In this document: piece by piece, positions 475-7,076 of the stretch | How positions within the stretch are numbered: position 1 is the stretch's first letter | How the letters are laid out: each line of letters begins with the position of its first letter | DNA from: a virus | Taxonomy: Duplodnaviria > Heunggongvirae > Uroviricota > Caudoviricetes | Virus record (IMG/VR): IMGVR_UViG_2667528155_000012 | DNA length: 7,076 nt | Reading direction: 5' to 3' (one strand) | Position numbers and translations under genes: made by a program | Notes under the pieces: model-generated | What the model was told of the DNA's origin: nothing | Seen by the model: only the letters and a program-made list of their open reading frames with translations | Database searches by the model: none

Positions 475-524
475 TCATTTCCCCTCATTCTGAGAGGACT
501 CACAGCAACAAAGAGGGGGGCTAA

Positions 525-911
525 ATGTCCGATCCGATTTCCGGTTCTGGGATGGCTGGTGGTGTCCTGACGGGGGCCAGCGTCTATGGATTTCTATCCG
601 GAACCGATTACGGCGTGGTGTTTGGCGCATTTGCCGGGGCTGTATTTTACATTGCAACCGCAGCGGATCTAAGTGCAGCGCGCCGACTGGCATATTTTCT
701 GGTGTCGTATATCGCGGGGATCCTTTGTTCCGGGCTGGTGGGTTCAAAGCTGGCTCAGGCTACCGGCTACAGTGATAAACCACTGGATGCCATTGGCGCC
801 GTAATCGTTTCTGCTTTAGCCGTCAAAATCCTGACATTCCTGAATAATCAGGATGTCGGCTCGCTGGTGGCGCTGATAACGCGCCGGGGAGGTTCAGGTG
901 GTACAAAATGA
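525..911 (+). CDS. Putative holin (128 aa, multi-TM, charged C-terminal tail)
   Basis: ATG at 525 preceded by SD AGAGGGGGG with a 5-nt spacer. Several hydrophobic helices (GVVFGAFAGAVFYIA, LAYFLVSYIAGILCSGLVG, AIGAVIVSALAVKILTFL) and a basic C-terminal tail (ITRRGGSGGTK). First gene of a translationally coupled operon ending in endolysin and spanins. Confidence 0.7.
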   Translation: MSDPISGSGMAGGVLTGASVYGFLSGTDYGVVFGAFAGAVFYIATAADLSAARRLAYFLVSYIAGILCSGLVGSKLAQATGYSDKPLDAIGAVIVSALAVKILTFLNNQDVGSLVALITRRGGSGGTK

Positions 912-1179
912 CCCATCGGCAACTTTTAATGCATTGCTTTGTGCTGGGGTAGTGTTAACCCTGATGTTTTACCGTCGCGGCGACTCGCGACATCGACCGT
1001 GGATATCTCGCTTAGCGTGGCTGCTTACGGTCATCTACAGCGCCGTTCCGCTGGCGTATCTGTGCGGTATTTACCCGTACTCATCATGGGCCACTATCGG
1101 GGCCAACTTTATTTTCCTGTCCGTGCTGGTCGCCGTAAGAGGCAACGTGGCACGTCTGGTTGATCATCTGAGGCACTAA
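898..1179 (+). CDS. Second small membrane protein of the lysis cassette (holin partner or antiholin-like), 93 aa, GTG start
   Basis: GTG at 898 preceded by GGGGAGG (886-892) with a 5-nt spacer. Overlaps the holin stop (909-911), and its TAA overlaps the endolysin ATG (taATG at 1177-1181). Hydrophobic segments FNALLCAGVVLTLMFY, LAWLLTVIYSAVPLAYLCGIY, IGANFIFLSVLVAV. Function inferred from position and topology only. Confidence 0.55.
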   Translation: MVQNDPSATFNALLCAGVVLTLMFYRRGDSRHRPWISRLAWLLTVIYSAVPLAYLCGIYPYSSWATIGANFIFLSVLVAVRGNVARLVDHLRH

Positions 1180-1793
1180 TGAACCAATCACAATTTCAGC
1201 AGGCGGCTGGTATCAGCGCCGGGCTTTCTGCGCGCTGGTTTCCGCACATTGACGCGGCAATGAAAGAGTTTGGCATTACAGCTACGAACGATCTGGCTAT
1301 GTTCATCGCCCAGGTTGGGCATGAGTCTGCTGGCTTTACCTCGCTGGTGGAAAGCTTCAACTACTCGGTAGAGGGGCTGAAGAAAACCTTTGGTAAACGG
1401 CTTACTCCTTATCAGTGTGAAATGCTGGGTCGTGTCGATGGTAAGCAGGTGGCCCACCAGCCGCAAATAGCCAATCTGGTTTATGGTGACCGCATGGGGA
1501 ATAACAGCCAGGGTGACGGCTGGAAATATCGCGGTCGCGGCCTGCTGCAAATCACGGGTCGTGAGAACTACACCAAATGCGGCACGGCGCTGAAACTTGA
1601 CCTTATCAGTACGCCAGAATTGCTAACGCAAGAGCGACATGCGGCTCGTTCGGCTGCGTGGTACTTCACGTTACGCGGTTGCCTGATGTATTCGGGTGAC
1701 GTGGCACGCGTTACGCAGATTATTAACGGCGGACAGAACGGCATTAAAGACCGCCGTGAACGTTACGCCAAAGCTAAAGCTGCACTGGTGTGA
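1179..1793 (+). CDS. Phage endolysin, glycoside hydrolase family 19 (chitinase-like lysozyme), 204 aa
   Basis: Translation contains KEFGITATNDLAMFIAQVGHESAGFTSLVE, the hallmark region of GH19-type phage endolysins with the catalytic Glu in HES, plus downstream GWKYRGRGLLQITGRENY. SD GAGG 5 nt upstream; sits between holin genes and spanins. Confidence 0.9.
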   Translation: MNQSQFQQAAGISAGLSARWFPHIDAAMKEFGITATNDLAMFIAQVGHESAGFTSLVESFNYSVEGLKKTFGKRLTPYQCEMLGRVDGKQVAHQPQIANLVYGDRMGNNSQGDGWKYRGRGLLQITGRENYTKCGTALKLDLISTPELLTQERHAARSAAWYFTLRGCLMYSGDVARVTQIINGGQNGIKDRRERYAKAKAALV

Positions 1794-1800
1794 GGTCAGT

Positions 1801-2070
1801 ATGGGGCTTGAAATGATTATCGGCCTGGTTGTTGCTGTGCTGGCTGCAATTGCAGGTGCTTTTGGGCTGGGCAAATCACGCGGTACCAGTATCGCTGAAA
1901 CAAAAGCGGACCAACAACGCACTGAAGAACGTGCAATAGCTATTGAAGCGGTTGCAGAACGCCGGGTAGAAACAACAAAAGGAGCCAGGGATGTACAACA
2001 GACTGTTAACCATATGCCTGATGACGCTGCTGATCGCGAGCTGCGCAAAAACTGGACACGTAAGGATTGA
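1801..2070 (+). CDS. Inner-membrane spanin subunit (Rz-like i-spanin), about 89 aa
   Basis: ATG at 1801 with GAGG upstream, 8 nt after the endolysin stop. N-terminal TM helix MGLEMIIGLVVAVLAAIAGAFGL followed by a charged, helical periplasmic domain. The ORF-track start at 1696 lies inside the endolysin gene and is rejected. Unusually short for an Rz protein. Confidence 0.7.
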   Translation: MGLEMIIGLVVAVLAAIAGAFGLGKSRGTSIAETKADQQRTEERAIAIEAVAERRVETTKGARDVQQTVNHMPDDAADRELRKNWTRKD

Positions 2071-2212
2071 GGTTATTGACACCGGCTGCGATTGGGTAAA
2101 ACCCATCTACGGCACTGCTCATGATTGGGAAGTGCTGGACAGGCAGACCAAGAAAGACATTCTTATGCATAACAAAGTGTGGATGTCAAACTGTGGCTCT
2201 ATAACTTATTGA
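1991..2212 (+). CDS. Outer-membrane spanin subunit (Rz1-like lipoprotein o-spanin), 73 aa
   Basis: ATG at 1991 with GGAG 6 nt upstream. Lipoprotein signal MYNRLLTICLMTLLIASC with lipobox IASC. Starts in a different frame inside the 3' end of the i-spanin gene and extends beyond it, the classic overlapped spanin architecture. Confidence 0.7.
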   Translation: MYNRLLTICLMTLLIASCAKTGHVRIEVIDTGCDWVKPIYGTAHDWEVLDRQTKKDILMHNKVWMSNCGSITY

Positions 2213-2862
2213 TTTTGTTTTTTGTTGTCTACCATATCAGGCAATGTGAAGGCATATAGAAGAAATACTTCGGTGAAACCAATCATTTCTTGAGCATCTT
2301 CTTTTGAAAATTCTTCATCAGAATGAACTGCTCCATTGGAATCGATTCGAACTATATGTGCCCATTCCCTCATTTGATCTGTAATCAGTCCCTTAGCATG
2401 CAACATAGAAATCCGTTTAACCAATTTTTCATCTTTTGAGTCATTTCCCAGTAACTCCCGTGTAGCAATGTCCAAGACTTTACGGCAAAGCATAACGGAT
2501 GTGTCGAAACGACAGCGCCCTAAGTTGTCTTTTGCTTCTATGAAAGCCATAGCAGCACGTGGCGGAGTGTGTTCGGGGGCGTTAAGGAGGGTGGGTTTCG
2601 GGATGATATCAATCAACTGGTACTCAGTATTTCCAGGAATGATTACGTTTACATCATTATTTTGCCTAGATTTTGCACGAGGTAAATAACCACCGGGATT
2701 ATTCATTTTTACAATAGCAATACCTGATTGAAAACAGCTTCGACAACAAAATGCAATATTAACTAAAGGCCCGGCGTTGATACGCAGTTCTGCCCATCCT
2801 TCAAGGACAGCATTTTCCCTCAGACAATGTGGGCAAGTGATATCGAAAGTGAGAATTCCCAT
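2206..2862 (-). CDS. Zinc-ribbon protein with a C-terminal DUF4145/HEPN-like domain (218 aa); candidate defence or abortive-infection effector
   Basis: ATG at 2862..2860 with GGAG 7 nt upstream on the minus strand; the ORF-track TTG start at 2907 is less likely. N-terminus has CPHC ... CCRSC (Cys-x2-Cys ... Cys-Cys-x2-Cys), typical of a zinc ribbon. C-terminus (VMLCRKVLDIATRELLG ... LITDQMREWAHIVRIDSNGAVH ... EDAQEMIGFTEVFLLYAFTLP) matches my recollection of the DUF4145 pattern with an R-x7-H motif. AT-rich, convergent with the spanin gene. Confidence 0.7.
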   Translation of the reverse strand: MGILTFDITCPHCLRENAVLEGWAELRINAGPLVNIAFCCRSCFQSGIAIVKMNNPGGYLPRAKSRQNNDVNVIIPGNTEYQLIDIIPKPTLLNAPEHTPPRAAMAFIEAKDNLGRCRFDTSVMLCRKVLDIATRELLGNDSKDEKLVKRISMLHAKGLITDQMREWAHIVRIDSNGAVHSDEEFSKEDAQEMIGFTEVFLLYAFTLPDMVDNKKQNQ

Positions 2863-3046
2863 GACTCTACTCCATACATTAAAAGAAATTGAAAATGAAT
2901 TACACAATGCACAACGACCTGAGTCTACACTCCTTCAACGATATGAAGTATCGAATGAGATTAAAAAAAAGGAGTTTGTAGTCGCTTTGATCGGTAAACT
3001 GATAGAATTGGACCGCCGTCTCTATGTCACATCATTGAAGCCTTAG
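2861..3046 (+). CDS. Hypothetical small protein (61 aa), divergent from the zinc-ribbon gene; uncertain
   Basis: ATG at 2861 reads MTLLHTLKEIENELHNAQRPESTLLQRYEVSNEIKKKEFVVALIGKLIELDRRLYVTSLKP, a predicted helical peptide. Only a weak SD (GTGAG), and the same DNA must also carry the promoter of the minus-strand gene, so coding status is doubtful. Confidence 0.25.
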   Translation: MTLLHTLKEIENELHNAQRPESTLLQRYEVSNEIKKKEFVVALIGKLIELDRRLYVTSLKP

Positions 3047-3415
3047 TTTCAATTTTACCGATTTATCGCTTAAGGGGTAGGACTTCAACACTACTAAGTG
3101 AGCATTGCAGCAGGCATTCAGGGGAATGCTGTGACAGTAGTTAGCTAGGGTAAACCGTTTGCGCCTGGGGATTTTACTTTGCGACGGAAAATTAAAAAAC
3201 TATATGATTTCTTATCCCACTAGGATGTCTGCGGACTACTACTGACTGTTTAGGCTATTACGAGGGGCTCAAACTCAACGTCTGGCATCAACGCAGAACT
3301 GAAAAAGTCGCCATGAATGTGGTTACGGTATTTGGTGGGATATAAACGTACCTTCATTTCTAAGCTTGATAATCACCTTTGTCCGAATTGCCTACGCGAT
3401 AGTCATGTAGTTTTA

Positions 3416-3445
3416 GTCATAACCGTTTACCCTATTGATGTCAAG
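3416..3445 (-). promoter_or_regulatory. Candidate minus-strand sigma70-like promoter inside the ORF-poor gap
   Basis: Minus strand: perfect -35 TTGACA (plus 3445..3440), 18-nt spacer, -10 TATGAC (plus 3421..3416). It would drive leftward transcription across 3409..3047 towards the zinc-ribbon gene. Pattern match only. Confidence 0.25.
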
Positions 3446-3542
3446 ATAAATTGGATAACACTGATGAATCGAACCTCTAAATCCTTTGATGGGCCACTCA
3501 TAGCTGACTGGTTCAAAAAAGTGTTATCAATGGTATGATAAG

Positions 3543-3572
3543 TTGAGATGAAAGGTGTAAATGAACTATAAT
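3543..3572 (+). promoter_or_regulatory. Candidate sigma70 promoter of the AT-rich two-gene operon
   Basis: TTGAGA (3543-3548), 18-nt spacer, consensus TATAAT (3567-3572), about 35 nt upstream of the ATG at 3608. Confidence 0.3.
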
Positions 3573-3607
3573 AATTCAACAGTTAATCTGAGAAAAATGG
3601 ATTATGT

Positions 3608-3877
3608 ATGTCGAATGTAAAAAAAATAGATGCTATAGTTCAAAATTTATTTGAATTCAGAGATGCTACAGGTGAACTTACGGATAAAAATATTGTTTTA
3701 ATACAAAAAATCATAACGAACTTACCTGACTATGCTGGTAAGGATCCATATGAATTTTATTCATCATTTTCTGAAGATATTAATGAGTCGCTCAAAGCAA
3801 TTGCCAATTATCATAAGGCACATGCTAAATACATTAATGCCCTCGATAAATTAGCAGAGCTTAGGTCGGAGGGGTAA
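3608..3877 (+). CDS. Hypothetical small acidic helical protein (89 aa), first gene of a two-gene accessory operon
   Basis: ATG at 3608, TAA at 3875-3877. Very AT-rich coding sequence; translation MSNVKKIDAIVQNLFEFRDATGELTDKNIVLIQKIITNLPDYAGKDPYEFY... has no TM segment and no motif I recognise. Its 3' end carries the SD of the next gene. Confidence 0.6.
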   Translation: MSNVKKIDAIVQNLFEFRDATGELTDKNIVLIQKIITNLPDYAGKDPYEFYSSFSEDINESLKAIANYHKAHAKYINALDKLAELRSEG

Positions 3878-3879
3878 TA

Positions 3880-4257
3880 ATGGCTACGGAAGATATTCAG
3901 GCTTTGTTATCTAAAGTTAATGCGTTAAGATTTGAAGATAAAAGAATAGAGAAGGAAACAGGAGAGATTGAAAATGAAATTCAGGCTCAATTTCTTCGTG
4001 ATGGTAAAACAAGGAGTACATTAACCATAACATTTATGAGAGGCTTTTTTGGTCTTATCGTTTTTTCTTTTATATTTGTGATAGTTTATAACTATTGCGC
4101 AGTGCAATGGGTACTTCAATTACAAAGCAAAGGGCTCATGGAGGCTTCTAAAAGTATCGCACTACTTGAGTTAGATAAGGTGTTATCTATTATGGTTAGT
4201 GCGTTAGGAACATCTCTTGGGTTTATAATTGGCTATTATTTTAAAGACAAAAAATAA
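3880..4257 (+). CDS. Hypothetical membrane protein (125 aa): N-terminal coiled-coil-like region plus two C-terminal TM helices; second gene of the operon
   Basis: ATG at 3880 with GGAGG (3868-3872) and a 7-nt spacer, 2 nt after the upstream stop. Charged N-terminal ~50 aa, then FFGLIVFSFIFVIVYNYCAVQWVL and LSIMVSALGTSLGFIIGYYF hydrophobic helices. Followed by a strong intrinsic terminator. Confidence 0.65.
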   Translation: MATEDIQALLSKVNALRFEDKRIEKETGEIENEIQAQFLRDGKTRSTLTITFMRGFFGLIVFSFIFVIVYNYCAVQWVLQLQSKGLMEASKSIALLELDKVLSIMVSALGTSLGFIIGYYFKDKK

Positions 4258-4330
4258 ATAATTTAATTTTACATTGCTATTTATGTTTTGCTTTTAAGAT
4301 TTTTAACTTTCTAGATGTAGAGTTATTGTT

Positions 4331-4360
4331 AAAGCACTGGTATTTGCCAGTGCTTTTTTA
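4331..4360 (+). terminator. Rho-independent terminator of the two-gene operon
   Basis: Perfect 8-bp stem AGCACTGG (4333-4340) / CCAGTGCT (4347-4354), loop TATTTG, then TTTTTTATT. Lies 76 nt after the stop at 4257. Confidence 0.6.
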
Positions 4361-4364
4361 TTAA

Positions 4365-4376
4365 AATCCGCGGATT
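4365..4376. repeat. Perfect 12-bp palindrome AATCCGCGGATT right after the terminator
   Basis: Read directly: aatccgcggatt is its own reverse complement. Possible dimeric protein-binding site; function unknown. Confidence 0.4.
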
Positions 4377-4764
4377 AATGACGGCAATCATGAATACTCC
4401 TCCAAAGACTGATCCAACGATACGGGTGTATAAGTCACACTTGTTTAATCTGTGATTGATGGCACTATAATTTATGTTGCACAACATAAACTGCCGATGG
4501 AGGGAATTGAGTGCTGAGCATGTCAGACATAAGTGTGTTGTCGAAGGTCTCCTCAGGCATGGTTTCTGCATAACGTCGACACTTGAAAGCCTCCATAATG
4601 ACAATAAAGTATAAGTATTATCATTATTAATTGTCACTTGCCGTTGCGACATGCTTGGGCGGCGACCGCCTAAGTTCTCTTTATAAATGAGAAGTTCCCG
4701 CTAGCGACCGTTTCTGATTCCTTTTTTTCTACTAAGTTTGTATCAAATAAACAGGATAATGCCG

Positions 4765-5127
4765 ATGCCAGCACGAGCAAAGCGTCCATGCCGGCACAAG
4801 GGCTGTGCGGCAGTTACCAACGATGCCAGTGGCTATTGTGATCAACACCGACAGCGGCATGCTGGTGATGGCTGGCGTAACTACCAGGCAGGAAAGAGCA
4901 GGCAGGAACGTGGATATGGGCGGACCTGGGAAATTAAACGGGTGCGTATCCTTCAGCGTGATAAGTACCTGTGTCAGAACCATCGCCGGCAGAAGATTGC
5001 AAAAAAGGCGACCAGCGTTGACCACATCATTCCAAAAGCTCATGGCGGTACTGATGACGATTTCAATCTTGAGTCGTTGTGCTGGGACTGCCACAGAGCG
5101 AAGACGGCAAGAGAGCGTATCCGATGA
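4765..5127 (+). CDS. Phage-associated HNH endonuclease (about 121 aa from ATG 4765)
   Basis: C-terminal HNH signature DHIIPKAHGGTDDDFNLESLCWDCH and an N-terminal Cys/His cluster (CRHKGC ... CDQH). AGGA (4753-4756) is 8 nt upstream of ATG 4765; alternative starts are ATG 4759 and TTG 4738. An HNH gene just upstream of terS is typical of HK97-like cos phages. Confidence 0.85.
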   Translation: MPARAKRPCRHKGCAAVTNDASGYCDQHRQRHAGDGWRNYQAGKSRQERGYGRTWEIKRVRILQRDKYLCQNHRRQKIAKKATSVDHIIPKAHGGTDDDFNLESLCWDCHRAKTARERIR

Positions 5128-5461
5128 GTTAGACCCATTGCACATATTTTGGTTCACGGCTCTATACAATAGCTAACTGCCCAAAATAATGGGGTGGTTC
5201 ATCGCGCCGCGCCAACCTGCACTGCAGCTATTGTGGGCAGTCAGGGCATAACTCTAGTGCCTGTCCACATAATGAGAGCTGCGGTCGTCGGCGCAGCCTG
5301 AATGATGACTTCCATCTTGATTGATGCCCACACAGGCCAGGGGAAGGGGGGATCAAATCCCTGACCCCTTTCGCCTTCCAGGACTGCCGCCTGAAGGACA
5401 TTTTTGCACGTCATAAATAAGGATCTTTTTTCCGGTAGGTTTCACCTATTAAAGAGGAGTT
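5128..5461. other. Candidate cos / packaging-initiation region between HNH and the small terminase
   Basis: 334-bp non-coding gap at the position where HK97-like phages carry cos. Contains a GC-rich purine run with an imperfect hairpin (about 5341-5368) and a second stem-loop at 5374-5397. The cleavage site itself cannot be determined from sequence. Confidence 0.3.
5374..5405 (+). terminator. Terminator-like stem-loop plus T-run upstream of terS (possible terminator, attenuator or terminase-binding structure)
   Basis: CCTTC(C)AGG (5374-5382) pairs with CCTGAAGG (5390-5397) with a 1-nt bulge and a 7-nt loop, followed by ACATTTTT (5398-5405). Confidence 0.3.
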
Positions 5462-5896
5462 ATGGCTGGTGGAATTCGATCGTCTGGAGGGGGGAGAAAA
5501 CCCATCTTACCCGCCGGACAAAAAAGTAAATTAACCCGAATTGCACCTCCTGCAGAGTTAATGGGGGAGGCTGCAATAAGACTGTGGAAAACCCAAAGTA
5601 AAATTCTGATCGAAAGAGGCGTGTTTGAACTGGAGGATGCGCCCCTGCTTGTGGCTTACTGCAATGCCTTCCATTTAATGCTTGAAGCTGAAAAATTGCT
5701 CTCGTCAAGCCTGACGACCGAAAGTGAAATGGGGGGATTAAAGAAACATCCCGCCGTTAACATCAGAAATGATTCAGTTTCCCAGATAGCCCGTCTTGGT
5801 TCGCTTCTGGGGTTGGATCCGCTCAGCCGAATTCGGATGCGTGGCGGTGGAAATGATCCTGACGACGACGGGAATGAATTTGATGAGTTTGACTGA
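5462..5896 (+). CDS. terS: Terminase small subunit, P27 family (144 aa)
   Basis: ATG at 5462 after AAGAGGAG. Translation has the family's characteristic N-terminal GGGRKP motif, a central LVAYCNAFHLMLEAEK, a C-terminal LGLDPLSRIRMRGG and an acidic tail. Its stop overlaps the next start (tgATGg). Confidence 0.85.
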   Translation: MAGGIRSSGGGRKPILPAGQKSKLTRIAPPAELMGEAAIRLWKTQSKILIERGVFELEDAPLLVAYCNAFHLMLEAEKLLSSSLTTESEMGGLKKHPAVNIRNDSVSQIARLGSLLGLDPLSRIRMRGGGNDPDDDGNEFDEFD

Positions 5897-7076
5897 TGGC
5901 TACATATCCGAACGTCAATGCAGCGAACCAGTATGCAAGAGATGTTGTTGGCGGGAAGATCCTTGCTTGTCAGTTAACTGTGCTTGCCTGTCAAAGACAC
6001 CTTGATGATTTGGAACGTGCGAAGGATCCTGCCTGGCCTTACCGGTTTGATAAAAACAAGGCCGAGCGATTTTTGCGCTTTGCTCAGAAGATGCCTCATA
6101 CGGCCGGTGAATGGGCCAGGAAGAAACTACGAATAGAATTTGAGCCCTGGCAAAAGTTTGCCCTTGGTGTGCCATTTGGATGGGTTAATAAGAAGTCCGG
6201 ATTCCGGCGTTTTTCTGAAATATATATTGAGGTGCCCAGGAAAAATGGGAAATCCGCAATTGCAGCTGCCGTTGGTAATTATATGTTTTGCGCCGATGGT
6301 GAACATGGTGCAGAAGTGTACTGTGGCGCCACTACTGAAAAACAAGCCTGGAAAGTCTTCTCTCCCGCTCTACAAATGGTAAAAAAACTCCCGGCATTGC
6401 GACAAAAATACTCAGTCAAACCCTGGGCGAAGAAAATGACCCGTCCGGATGGCTCTGTTTTTGCGCCAGTCATCGGCGATCCTGGTGACGGCGATTCCCC
6501 TTCATGTGCAATTATTGATGAATATCACGAGCATCAGACTGATGCACTTTATACAACGATGACTACCGGGATGGGGGCAAGGGAGCAGCCTGTTACTCTG
6601 ATTATTACTACAGCGGGTTATGACATTACTTCGCCCTGTTACGAGAAGCGTGTGCAGATAGTGGAAATTCTCCGCCGTAACCGGACAGGAGAAGAAAACG
6701 AGACAATATTTGGCATTATATACGGTCTGGATGACGATGATGACTGGACCAGGCCCGAAGCGCTGATTAAAGCAAATCCCAACTTTGGTGTTTCTGTTAA
6801 AGAGCATTTTCTTCGGGCGAAGCAGTTACTGGGAATATCCAATCCCAGCCAGACTAACAAAATTCTGACCAAGCACTTTAACCGGTGGGTAAGTGCAAAA
6901 ACGGTTTTTTATGACCTGCAAAGATGGATGGCTGCTGCGGATAAAAACCTTAAATTATCTGCTGAAGGAAGTCTCAACGCTGAATACAGAATTTCTAATC
7001 TGGATGCAGATTTATCTTCACCGGACGCAGACTTGTCTATGATGTCGCGTCATACTATTTTTCAACACGTTGAAAT
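5896..7076 (+). CDS. terL: Terminase large subunit, N-terminal ~393 codons (continues past the window end)
   Basis: ATG at 5896 overlapping the terS stop; frame open to 7076, and no ORF-track entry exists because no stop is reached. Walker A-like VPRKNGKS and Walker B-like CAIIDEYHEH are present, consistent with the terminase ATPase domain. Confidence 0.9.
   Translation, partial: MATYPNVNAANQYARDVVGGKILACQLTVLACQRHLDDLERAKDPAWPYRFDKNKAERFLRFAQKMPHTAGEWARKKLRIEFEPWQKFALGVPFGWVNKKSGFRRFSEIYIEVPRKNGKSAIAAAVGNYMFCADGEHGAEVYCGATTEKQAWKVFSPALQMVKKLPALRQKYSVKPWAKKMTRPDGSVFAPVIGDPGDGDSPSCAIIDEYHEHQTDALYTTMTTGMGAREQPVTLIITTAGYDITSPCYEKRVQIVEILRRNRTGEENETIFGIIYGLDDDDDWTRPEALIKANPNFGVSVKEHFLRAKQLLGISNPSQTNKILTKHFNRWVSAKTVFYDLQRWMAAADKNLKLSAEGSLNAEYRISNLDADLSSPDADLSMMSRHTIFQHVE

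Follow-up and report, generated by a model that had tools for sequence, protein, structure and literature searches.

What do two small, AT-rich genes do between the lysis and packaging modules of a prophage? We asked this of a 7,076-nucleotide (nt) stretch of viral DNA (IMG/VR record IMGVR_UViG_2667528155_000012), which is a segment of the late region of a lambdoid Escherichia coli prophage. We will refer to the whole stretch as the window. At positions 3543-4360 of the window, gene A encodes an 89-amino-acid (aa) protein and gene B encodes a predicted inner-membrane protein of 125 aa. A preliminary description, made from the sequence alone, proposed that this pair is a candidate phage-exclusion or abortive-infection module of an undescribed kind. 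We found that A and B are real genes that move together as cargo of temperate phages, and that they represent two unannotated protein families. As to function, we tentatively suggest that B is a pore-forming effector that A holds in check.

Genes A and B are real and translationally coupled

Both proteins have conserved homologs, so the genes are real. In 2,000 dinucleotide-preserving shuffles of 3543-4360, the longest open reading frame (ORF) averaged 53 codons. An ORF of 125 codons arose in just 2 of the 2,000 shuffles, and a pair of 125 and 89 codons arose in none of them (0/2,000).

The two genes are also translationally coupled. Gene A stops with a TAA whose last base is 3877, and gene B starts with the ATG at 3880, leaving a gap of 2 nt. 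The Shine-Dalgarno sequence for gene B, GGAGGGG (3868-3874), lies inside gene A and ends 5 nt ahead of the ATG. In most other alleles, A overlaps B by 8-32 nt, so the coupling is conserved.

The pair has its own predicted signals. The promoter-like site matches the sigma-70 consensus at 11 of 12 positions, is the best site in a scan of 2800-4800, and lies about 35 nt before the start of gene A. The terminator that follows gene B has a stem-loop with a folding energy of -16.4 kcal/mol (z = -5.7 versus shuffled sequences). The GC content is 0.30-0.34 across 3450-4500, versus 0.50-0.55 in the lysis and packaging modules (or about 32% versus about 52%). The preliminary description had pointed to the tight coupling with a Shine-Dalgarno sequence inside the first gene, the promoter-like element and strong terminator, the higher AT content than in the flanking modules, and the slot between lysis and packaging genes. 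All of these features held up; holin, endolysin, and Rz genes precede the pair, and HNH, TerS, and TerL come after it.

Protein B has a near-invariant second transmembrane helix

The AlphaFold2 model of B has a long helix (residues 3-83) and a second helix (98-122), with a predicted local distance difference test (pLDDT) score of 78. The hydropathy maxima, at about residues 49-79 and 100-121, correspond to two transmembrane helices (TM1 and TM2). So the layout of B is a variable, charged N-terminal helix (1-45), TM1, a short loop, TM2, and a tail of 3 residues. As B has no signal peptide and has flanking K/R residues, the loop is probably periplasmic, with both ends of the protein in the cytoplasm (N-in/C-in). 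TM2 carries the motif G110xxxG114xxxG118-Y-Y-F-K. A GxxxGxxxG face is a classical motif for transmembrane packing and for pores.

B matches phrog_20796 (E = 4.5e-49), a family whose function is unassigned in PHROGs. A text-index search for B gave 132 clusters, and every one is labeled hypothetical. The clusters with named organisms were all from Enterobacterales, and two others were labeled just uncultured Caudoviricetes. We aligned 27 of these clusters. An exhaustive search with a hidden Markov model (HMM), against 1.84 billion representative sequences, found 227 clusters at 50% identity (E <= 1e-3). These proteins range from about 70 to 230 aa, and nearly all of them end in LGF[VI][IV]GYYFK. 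The HMM search was independent of this motif, while our scans for loci used it as a pattern, so the hits from the locus scans were ascertained on the motif.

In the 27-member alignment, the N-terminal stretch of about 45 residues varies and TM2 has an invariant ALGTSLGFIIGYYFK[DE]K. Among 134 diverse members, R45, G114, F115, G118, Y119, Y120, F121, and K122 are each at least 90% conserved. In other words, the most conserved residues of B are the ridge of small residues in TM2 (GxxxGxxxG, ending in YYFK), plus R45/T49 before TM1. In this putative topology, both of these clusters would sit at the cytoplasmic face of the membrane, at the ends of the two helices. Two copies deviate: the B protein of locus L039 (5932-6381) reads GYSFK, and the B ORF of L049 (6001-6258) is truncated to 85 aa. 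These copies could be decaying.

The near-invariant C-terminal motif was overlooked in the preliminary description, as were the range of the family beyond phages and Enterobacterales and a decayed gene fragment to the left of the cassette (both described below).

Protein A is a predicted helical hairpin, and neither protein is recognized

Protein A is acidic (isoelectric point 5.3) and has no hydrophobic segment. Its AlphaFold2 model is an antiparallel hairpin of two helices (2-42 and 47-88; pLDDT 92), and we predict that A is a cytoplasmic helical hairpin. The expectation of a small helical protein followed by a membrane protein with two C-terminal transmembrane helices thus agrees with the predictions for both proteins. 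A weakly matches phrog_21707 (E = 5e-8), whose function is also unassigned in PHROGs. The family of A evolves fast, and its conserved motifs are L..FR and YN.S..DY..K.L. Judging from the helix register, these two motifs may face each other across the hairpin.

Neither A nor B had a match in Pfam, NCBIfam, or PADLOC (including no component hit among the PADLOC-DB v2.0.0 models), and sequence-profile searches against the PDB gave nothing credible. For A, the Pfam and NCBIfam searches found no Panacea/DUF4065, ribbon-helix-helix, helix-turn-helix, or other antitoxin domain, and Foldseek against the PDB found just generic helical hairpins, with nothing significant (E >= 0.14). For B, Foldseek found no match in the PDB or in BFVD. 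B did not match any holin family in Pfam, although flanking genes match Phage_holin_8 and Phage_holin_3_7. When we scanned the 134 diverse homologs of B with Pfam and PADLOC, we found scattered single weak transmembrane hits and no common family. A text search of the literature for GYYFK returned no papers.

We also compared the pair to specific defense proteins. The Gifsy defense protein GiPD474 has an ATPase domain, so we rejected it as a match. We also rejected Bandua, Aernus, Toga, Reve, Crouga, and Hailong, all of them newly named P4 systems (PMC13586616), since they contain other domains. In the portions available of the papers on P2 and P4 hotspots (Rousset et al.; PMC13586616), none of the named systems has the composition of A-B. 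As the preliminary description stated, both proteins are unrecognized: phrog_20796 and phrog_21707 are two unannotated protein families that are undescribed in all of the resources that we queried.

A and B travel and diverge together

In every enterobacterial locus that includes upstream DNA, an ORF of 96-163 aa on the same strand abuts or overlaps the 5' end of B. These ORFs are homologous to A (phmmer E values down to 7e-14, from a single sequence), and searching with a profile of A retrieved another 32 clusters. The pairing can also be seen in adjacent RefSeq locus tags: Pantoea CG435_10845/CG435_10840, V461_21730/V461_21725, and ABEH00_10025/ABEH00_10030. So the question of whether the pair is co-conserved across prophages, which the preliminary description had raised, has a clear answer for Enterobacterales: a homolog of A lies directly before B.

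The two genes also diverge together. Across 46 non-redundant pairs, the mean p-distance was 0.76 for A, 0.82 for the N-terminal part of B, and 0.42 for the transmembrane part of B. The divergence of A was correlated with that of the N-terminus of B (r = 0.76; partial r = 0.50, permutation p = 0.001). This shows that A and B travel and diverge together, which is compatible with co-evolution.

The pair is exchangeable cargo of prophages

The exact element from the window was found again in E. coli assemblies, with identical gene order. Megablast searches with the cassette matched nothing in the phage collection or among complete RefSeq genomes of E. coli, and a second allele likewise gave no match. 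Some phages that are related to the window lack the pair. For example, the lysis cassette is shared with Citrobacter phage Chris1, and the HNH and terminase genes are shared with Klebsiella phage ST846-OXA48phi9.1, yet A-B is missing from both. Other phages have a different version of the pair. L033 and L067, which are phages from IMG/VR or metagenomes, share the backbone of the window on both sides of the cargo (Table 1). The backbone matches end beside 2176 and 4730, which implies that about 2176-4730 is replaceable. Among these three phages, the A proteins are just 21-24% identical and the B proteins are 43-46% identical.

Morons, in the sense of Hendrix and Juhala, are units of cargo that temperate phages carry and that are autonomous. 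In the window, the pair has the hallmarks of a moron: its own predicted promoter and terminator, a distinct composition, and presence or absence among related phages. In the other enterobacterial loci, the GC content of the pair is 0.31-0.39, which is lower than in the flanks (mostly 0.45-0.55) in nearly every case; in some Providencia-type loci, the gap is small or nil. Of the other alleles, roughly half have a hairpin and a run of T's after B. Overall, A-B is a mobile and phage-dispensable cargo cassette (a moron) that is swapped as a unit, and in Enterobacterales its order is always A and then B. The suggestion that the pair occupies a moron slot was therefore correct: it is AT-rich across enterobacterial loci, it is missing from phages whose lysis cassette or terminase is that of the window, and different alleles lie in backbones that are 89-96% identical.

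The usual position of the pair in enterobacteria is between the lysis and packaging modules, which raises the possibility that it serves the phage's own lysis. The pair might be a regulator of lysis timing, similar to an antiholin and holin or to a lysis-inhibition pair, and might be expressed with the late operon. T4 RIII (small and cytoplasmic) with RI (membrane-tethered), or LydA/LydB of P1, would be analogous in architecture. Most of the enterobacterial pairs are immediately downstream of spanin genes and in the same orientation, and B is similar to class II holins in its two transmembrane helices, putative N-in/C-in topology, and glycine-zipper TM2. However, the adjacent endolysins belong to at least four unrelated types (GH19, Phage_lysozyme, M15_3, and GH108), there are at least six families of holins, and the terminases differ too, so no lysis protein is a constant partner. 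Furthermore, phages whose lysis cassette is almost identical lack the pair; in the window, a gene on the opposite strand separates the pair from the lysis genes, and the pair has its own promoter-like site and terminator; and B lacks both a holin hit in Pfam and the long charged C-terminal tail of a holin. Pairs are also found at other locations in phages, and distant pairs are found outside of phages (see below). We consider a role in lysis to be decidedly unlikely.

The other locations are diverse, and in all the pair occupies cargo and defense hotspots in several phage architectures that are not related. In L021-L023, the pair is beside a lambda-type integrase at the end of the prophage. 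In L005, from a Providencia chromosome, it is among tail genes and has an AAA_21 ATPase gene as a neighbor. (In L005, at 6651-8630, the pair is followed by a 419-aa AAA_21 ATPase, which is AbiEii-like, and a 238-aa gene; these resemble two-gene ATPase defense systems.) And in the P2-like phages of L045-L047 and L050, the pair separates gpA from gpQ, the gene for the portal. For instance, in L046, a Phage_GPA gene (2446-4296) is followed by A (4928-5419), B (5403-5795), and, on the minus strand, the portal gene (5818-6849). In L047 and L050, the portal gene and a gpP-type terminase adjoin B. This placement applies to relatives of the pair only, as the element in the window is lambdoid.

The gpA-gpQ locus is a defense hotspot of P2 that carries old and tin, as defined in a preprint (bioRxiv 10.1101/2021.01.21.427644). 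P4 is the satellite counterpart of P2, and in its defense loci, 6 of 8 randomly chosen sets of genes of unknown function protected against phages, according to a 2026 study (PMC13586616).

B is rare among isolated phages and plasmids. Among 50,697 deposited phage genomes, just one has it (Klebsiella phage P7641, in the same slot), and the count for plasmids is 1 of 72,556.

Distant homologs of B are found in other phyla

Distant homologs of B from the environment are 25-37% identical, and most of them have a helical ORF of 84-97 aa directly upstream. Those upstream ORFs (from loci L081-L130; alignment A5) form their own family, with a conserved N19 and conserved L..Q and LF..Y motifs. From their sequences, these partners seem to be analogous to A in size, position, and predicted helicity only. 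Either the environmental partner has diverged past recognition, or B has recruited different hairpin partners. Distant homologs of B also occur in bacteria of the Candidate Phyla Radiation (CPR) and in Planctomycetes.

Not all of the distant loci have this arrangement. In loci from the human gut (L123-L129 and L142-L145, from metagenome and viral contigs), B is 100-111 aa and follows a gene of ~430 aa, and there is no A-like ORF. The ~430-aa gene is possibly an integrase; in a pooled scan of the neighbors, integrase domains matched a few proteins. In L011, a metagenome-assembled genome from Dojkabacteria, the ORF upstream of B (5569-5811; 80 aa) has a ribbon-helix-helix-like sequence, as in classical antitoxins.

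The neighbors of the distant pairs include IS1595 transposases, integrases, AbiJ-like proteins, methylases, and PD-(D/E)XK nucleases. Other distant pairs are inserted among housekeeping genes, such as obg, sbcB, or topA. Since these contexts are not from phages, the module appears to be autonomous, and phage lysis genes are not necessary for it.

These contexts suggest two other explanations. First, A-B could be an addiction module: B would be a toxin, A would be a labile antitoxin, and together they would stabilize the prophage or genomic island, with no dedicated role against phages. This would fit the two small genes that are coupled or overlapping, with the soluble one first, and the sporadic distribution, in variable regions beside transposases and integrases or between housekeeping genes. 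The antitoxin-like sequence of the partner in L011 would also fit, and the PanT membrane toxins are a precedent (PMC8832971). However, addiction modules are common on plasmids, and the pair is nearly missing from them. A has no recognizable DNA-binding or Panacea domain, and rapid turnover of alleles at phage hotspots is more typical of systems that are involved in conflicts. We think that addiction alone is unlikely to be the explanation, but it overlaps with our preferred reading of a gated membrane effector because many toxin-antitoxin systems also act in defense.

Second, the pair could be a lysogenic-conversion factor whose role has nothing to do with phages, such as in membrane stress, ion homeostasis, or interaction with the host, like the lambda morons Bor and Lom. 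Genes without a role in defense do occur in these slots (for example, a gene for a RhoGAP-domain protein, or a glycosyltransferase and a sulfatase, are beside the pair in L007 and L043), and some distant homologs lie between housekeeping genes. But the rapid replacement of alleles, with hypervariability of A and of the N-terminus of B, would be unusual for a housekeeping-type membrane function, and the family is rare and patchy (just those 227 clusters among 1.84 billion representatives). We view lysogenic conversion of this kind as very unlikely.

Other features of the window

The features of the window, and its matches to the related phages, are listed in Table 1.

Table 1. Features of the 7,076-nt window and its backbone matches to two related phages
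Feature	Position	Strand	Evidence or comment
Phage_holin_8 holin	525-911		part of the lysis module
Second holin-like gene	898-1179		
GH19-type endolysin	1179-1793		
Rz/Rz1-like genes	about 1801-2212		
Variable cargo region	2176-4730		from the Rz/Rz1 end to the HNH gene; two independent units, the DUF4145 gene (minus strand) and the A-B cassette; comparison with L033 and L067
DUF4145 gene	2206-2907	-	Pfam E = 8e-11; phrog_1305
Sigma-70 promoter-like site	3543-3572	+	TTGAGA-18 nt-TATAAT; consensus match 11/12
Gene A (89 aa)	3608-3877	+	ORF, homologs
Shine-Dalgarno sequence for gene B	3868-3874	+	GGAGGGG, inside the 3' end of gene A; direct reading
Gene B (125 aa), predicted inner-membrane protein	3880-4257	+	ORF, homologs
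Intrinsic terminator	4331-4362 (stem-loop 4331-4356)	+	11-bp stem, 4-nt loop, T-run; fold prediction
HNH endonuclease gene	4738-5127		intact; right of the cassette
TerS	5462-5896		TerL is next
L033, left match	480-2175		96% identity; cargo of L033 is a different A-B allele and a 280-aa gene, with no DUF4145 gene
L033, right match	4765-5127		87% identity
L067, left match	479-2172		89% identity; cargo of L067 is a different A-B allele only
L067, right match	4731-6063		90% identity

Just to the left of the promoter-like site for A-B lies a decayed piece of a gene for an HNH endonuclease, in the form of a 73-aa ORF (3317-3538, plus strand; within 3303-3538). Over 34 aa, its translation shares 53% identity with the core (RDNHLCQNCLR...) of the HNH protein of L039, which is intact, and the DNA of 3303-3538 is similar to L039 6960-7154 and to L060 4996-5087. 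With this remnant on the left and the intact HNH gene on the right, the cassette is flanked by HNH sequence on both sides, which looks like a recombination scar. As for the repeats around the cassette, both direct and inverted, we found only short matches that are probably due to chance, and no att-like or insertion-sequence-like ends.

A second strong terminator-like hairpin (4653-4675, plus strand; 10 pairs, 6 of them GC) is just upstream of the HNH gene. There is a promoter-like site on the minus strand (4637-4608) that matches the consensus at 10 of 12 positions. An ORF of 107 aa on the minus strand (4329-4652) had no match in Pfam, NCBIfam, or PADLOC, and had two weak hits in PHROGs (E = 0.03-0.16). 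Scans of the window for Rfam families and tRNAs came up empty.

As L033 and L067 share the backbone but lack the DUF4145 gene, this gene is a moron that is separate from A-B. Its protein weakly matches the PADLOC model PD-T7-4 (E = 0.0027). As it lies in the same AT-rich cargo region, this gene is itself a candidate for a defense gene.

A might restrain a pore-forming B

How might the pair work? Our preferred reading, which we hold tentatively and rate at somewhat less than an even chance, is that B forms pores under the restraint of A, which would make the pair a module for abortive infection or one that resembles a toxin-antitoxin system. B would oligomerize via the glycine zipper of TM2 and would form a pore or lesion that collapses the membrane potential. 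In the lysogen, A would bind the cytoplasmic part of B and keep it inactive. An infecting phage would free B, either by direct contact with the variable surfaces of A or of the N-terminus of B, or through the loss of A. The cell would then be depolarized before the invader completes its cycle, that is, an abortive infection. A is hypervariable, as is the N-terminal helix of B in the cytoplasm; their divergence is correlated, and this allelic diversity would set the specificity of the trigger.

We infer a defense function from the architecture and the location of the pair, and several observations weigh against it. Because A and B have no homology to known families of defense proteins, toxins, or holins, architecture and location are also the basis for the mechanism. 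Location in a hotspot is a prior and not a proof: besides defense genes, such hotspots hold genes for virulence, partition, and anti-defense, according to the same preprint (bioRxiv 10.1101/2021.01.21.427644). In two Klebsiella prophages (L056, at 6784-7068, and L057, at 6775-7068), a gene with an Acb2/Tad1 hairpin, which is an anti-defense sponge, occupies the same slot between lysis and packaging genes, a few hundred bases upstream of A-B. This implies that the slot carries both defense-like and anti-defense cargo. Also, A would make a very small sensor. The pair is co-oriented with the late genes, and is often directly after Rz, so it could have a role in the lytic cycle of the phage itself. 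Promoter-like sites (matches at 9-10 of 12 positions) were found before A in just about half of the other alleles, which is inconsistent. Simple co-inheritance would give the same mirror-tree correlation between A and B. And when we compared the enterobacterial A profile to the profile of the environmental partners with hhalign, the probability was 1.8%, or no detectable homology.

The conservation of TM2 has another potential explanation, which is superinfection exclusion without suicide. Small inner-membrane proteins of phages or prophages such as T4 Imm, P22 SieA, and HK97 gp15 (a classical moron) are of this type. B would block the entry of incoming genomes, its TM2 motif would contact a conserved component of the host's membrane that is needed for DNA translocation, and A would be a stabilizer or regulator. 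B is a small inner-membrane moron protein in prophage cargo slots, and a single transmembrane helix that is conserved across phyla fits a universal partner in the membrane as well as it fits self-assembly. Exclusion could also account for why B recurs in prophages and yet is almost missing from plasmids and isolated phages. On the other side, the known proteins of this type act as single genes, while B has a strictly co-conserved cytoplasmic partner; the hypervariable parts of the pair are cytoplasmic instead of periplasmic; B does not match Imm_superinfect or any other family in Pfam; and the distant homologs are in CPR bacteria and Planctomycetes, whose envelopes are very different. We think that non-suicidal exclusion is rather unlikely.

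Returning to the gated effector, the preliminary description was right that this is a candidate module: it is self-contained, co-conserved, moron-like, and unrecognized, and it has relatives in the gpA-gpQ hotspot of P2. That it excludes phages or is toxic is still something that we infer. A broader version of this idea is that A-B is the first-noticed member of an ancient and phylum-spanning "GYYFK" module, in which a hairpin gates a two-transmembrane pore with a glycine zipper. Such a module would represent a new class of systems for abortive infection or exclusion, captured by the temperate phages of enterobacteria and diversified at their cos-proximal and att-proximal hotspots. We consider the broader version possible but on the doubtful side.

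If the pair does exclude phages, then it would be a very compact defense system (about 0.8 kb), with a family of membrane effectors that is absent from current databases. The junction between lysis and packaging in lambdoid prophages would then behave like the hotspots of P2 and P4. The near-invariant motif in TM2 offers an entry point for mutagenesis and a way to recognize the family in more genomes, and the hypervariable surfaces of A and of the N-terminus of B are a natural allelic series for studying the specificity of the trigger. Even if the pair is a plain toxin-antitoxin module or an exclusion protein, phrog_20796 and phrog_21707 are now defined, and they recur in prophages of clinical Klebsiella, Enterobacter, Serratia, Providencia, and E. 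coli.

Comparison with known systems

T4 Imm, P22 SieA, and HK97 gp15 differ from A-B in being single genes, as discussed above. Class II holins, or pinholins, such as S21 of phage 21, have two transmembrane helices in an N-in/C-in topology, and a face of TM2 with a glycine zipper forms the oligomeric pore. Like them, B is small, has two transmembrane helices, and is found near lysis genes. In contrast to them, B has a cytoplasmic N-terminal helix of 45 aa and a tail of just 3 residues, is dispensable, and occurs outside of phages.

A-B has much in common with the cargo of the P2 gpA-gpQ and P4 hotspots: some of its relatives are in the exact gpA-gpQ locus, and it shows the same modular swapping. 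It differs in that the PADLOC v2 models give no match. What appears to be new here is a two-component unit with a membrane effector and no homology to the known examples, which makes it a good but unproven candidate for an exclusion system.

The preliminary description also compared the pair to RexA/RexB. Like A-B, RexA/RexB is a prophage unit of two genes, one for a cytoplasmic protein and one for a small protein of the inner membrane, and depolarization is the proposed outcome. RexB has four transmembrane helices, while B has two, and RexA is about 279 aa, while A is a hairpin of 89 aa. Furthermore, there is no similarity by sequence or profile (no hit in Pfam or PADLOC), and RexA/RexB lies in the immunity region with cI, while A-B is in the lysis-packaging slot. 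So the resemblance is in the logic only, and the comparison does not extend to homology, to the number of transmembrane helices, or to location.

The PanA-PanT loci (such as those with PanT Esc. col., PanT Bar. api., or PanT Hel. sp.) have two genes, usually with the antitoxin first (PMC8832971). In PanT toxins, the N-terminal region is charged or forms a coiled coil, and the transmembrane helices are C-terminal; these toxins depolarize membranes and are neutralized by direct binding of the protein antitoxin that is encoded upstream (PMC8832971). Like A-B, these loci have the soluble partner first and a gap of under 100 nt or an overlap (for A-B, 2 nt separate the genes of the window, and other alleles overlap by 8-32 nt). 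Unlike PanA, A has no Panacea/DUF4065 domain, and the usual partner of B is a hairpin of approximately 90 aa. The motif GYYF does not appear in those supplements of that paper that are in text form (PMC8832971). Because the tests for RexA/RexB and for the Panacea domain were negative, we assign A-B to neither RexAB nor PanAT. As working analogies, the closest systems would be RexAB for the logic of the pair and the PanT membrane toxins for its architecture.

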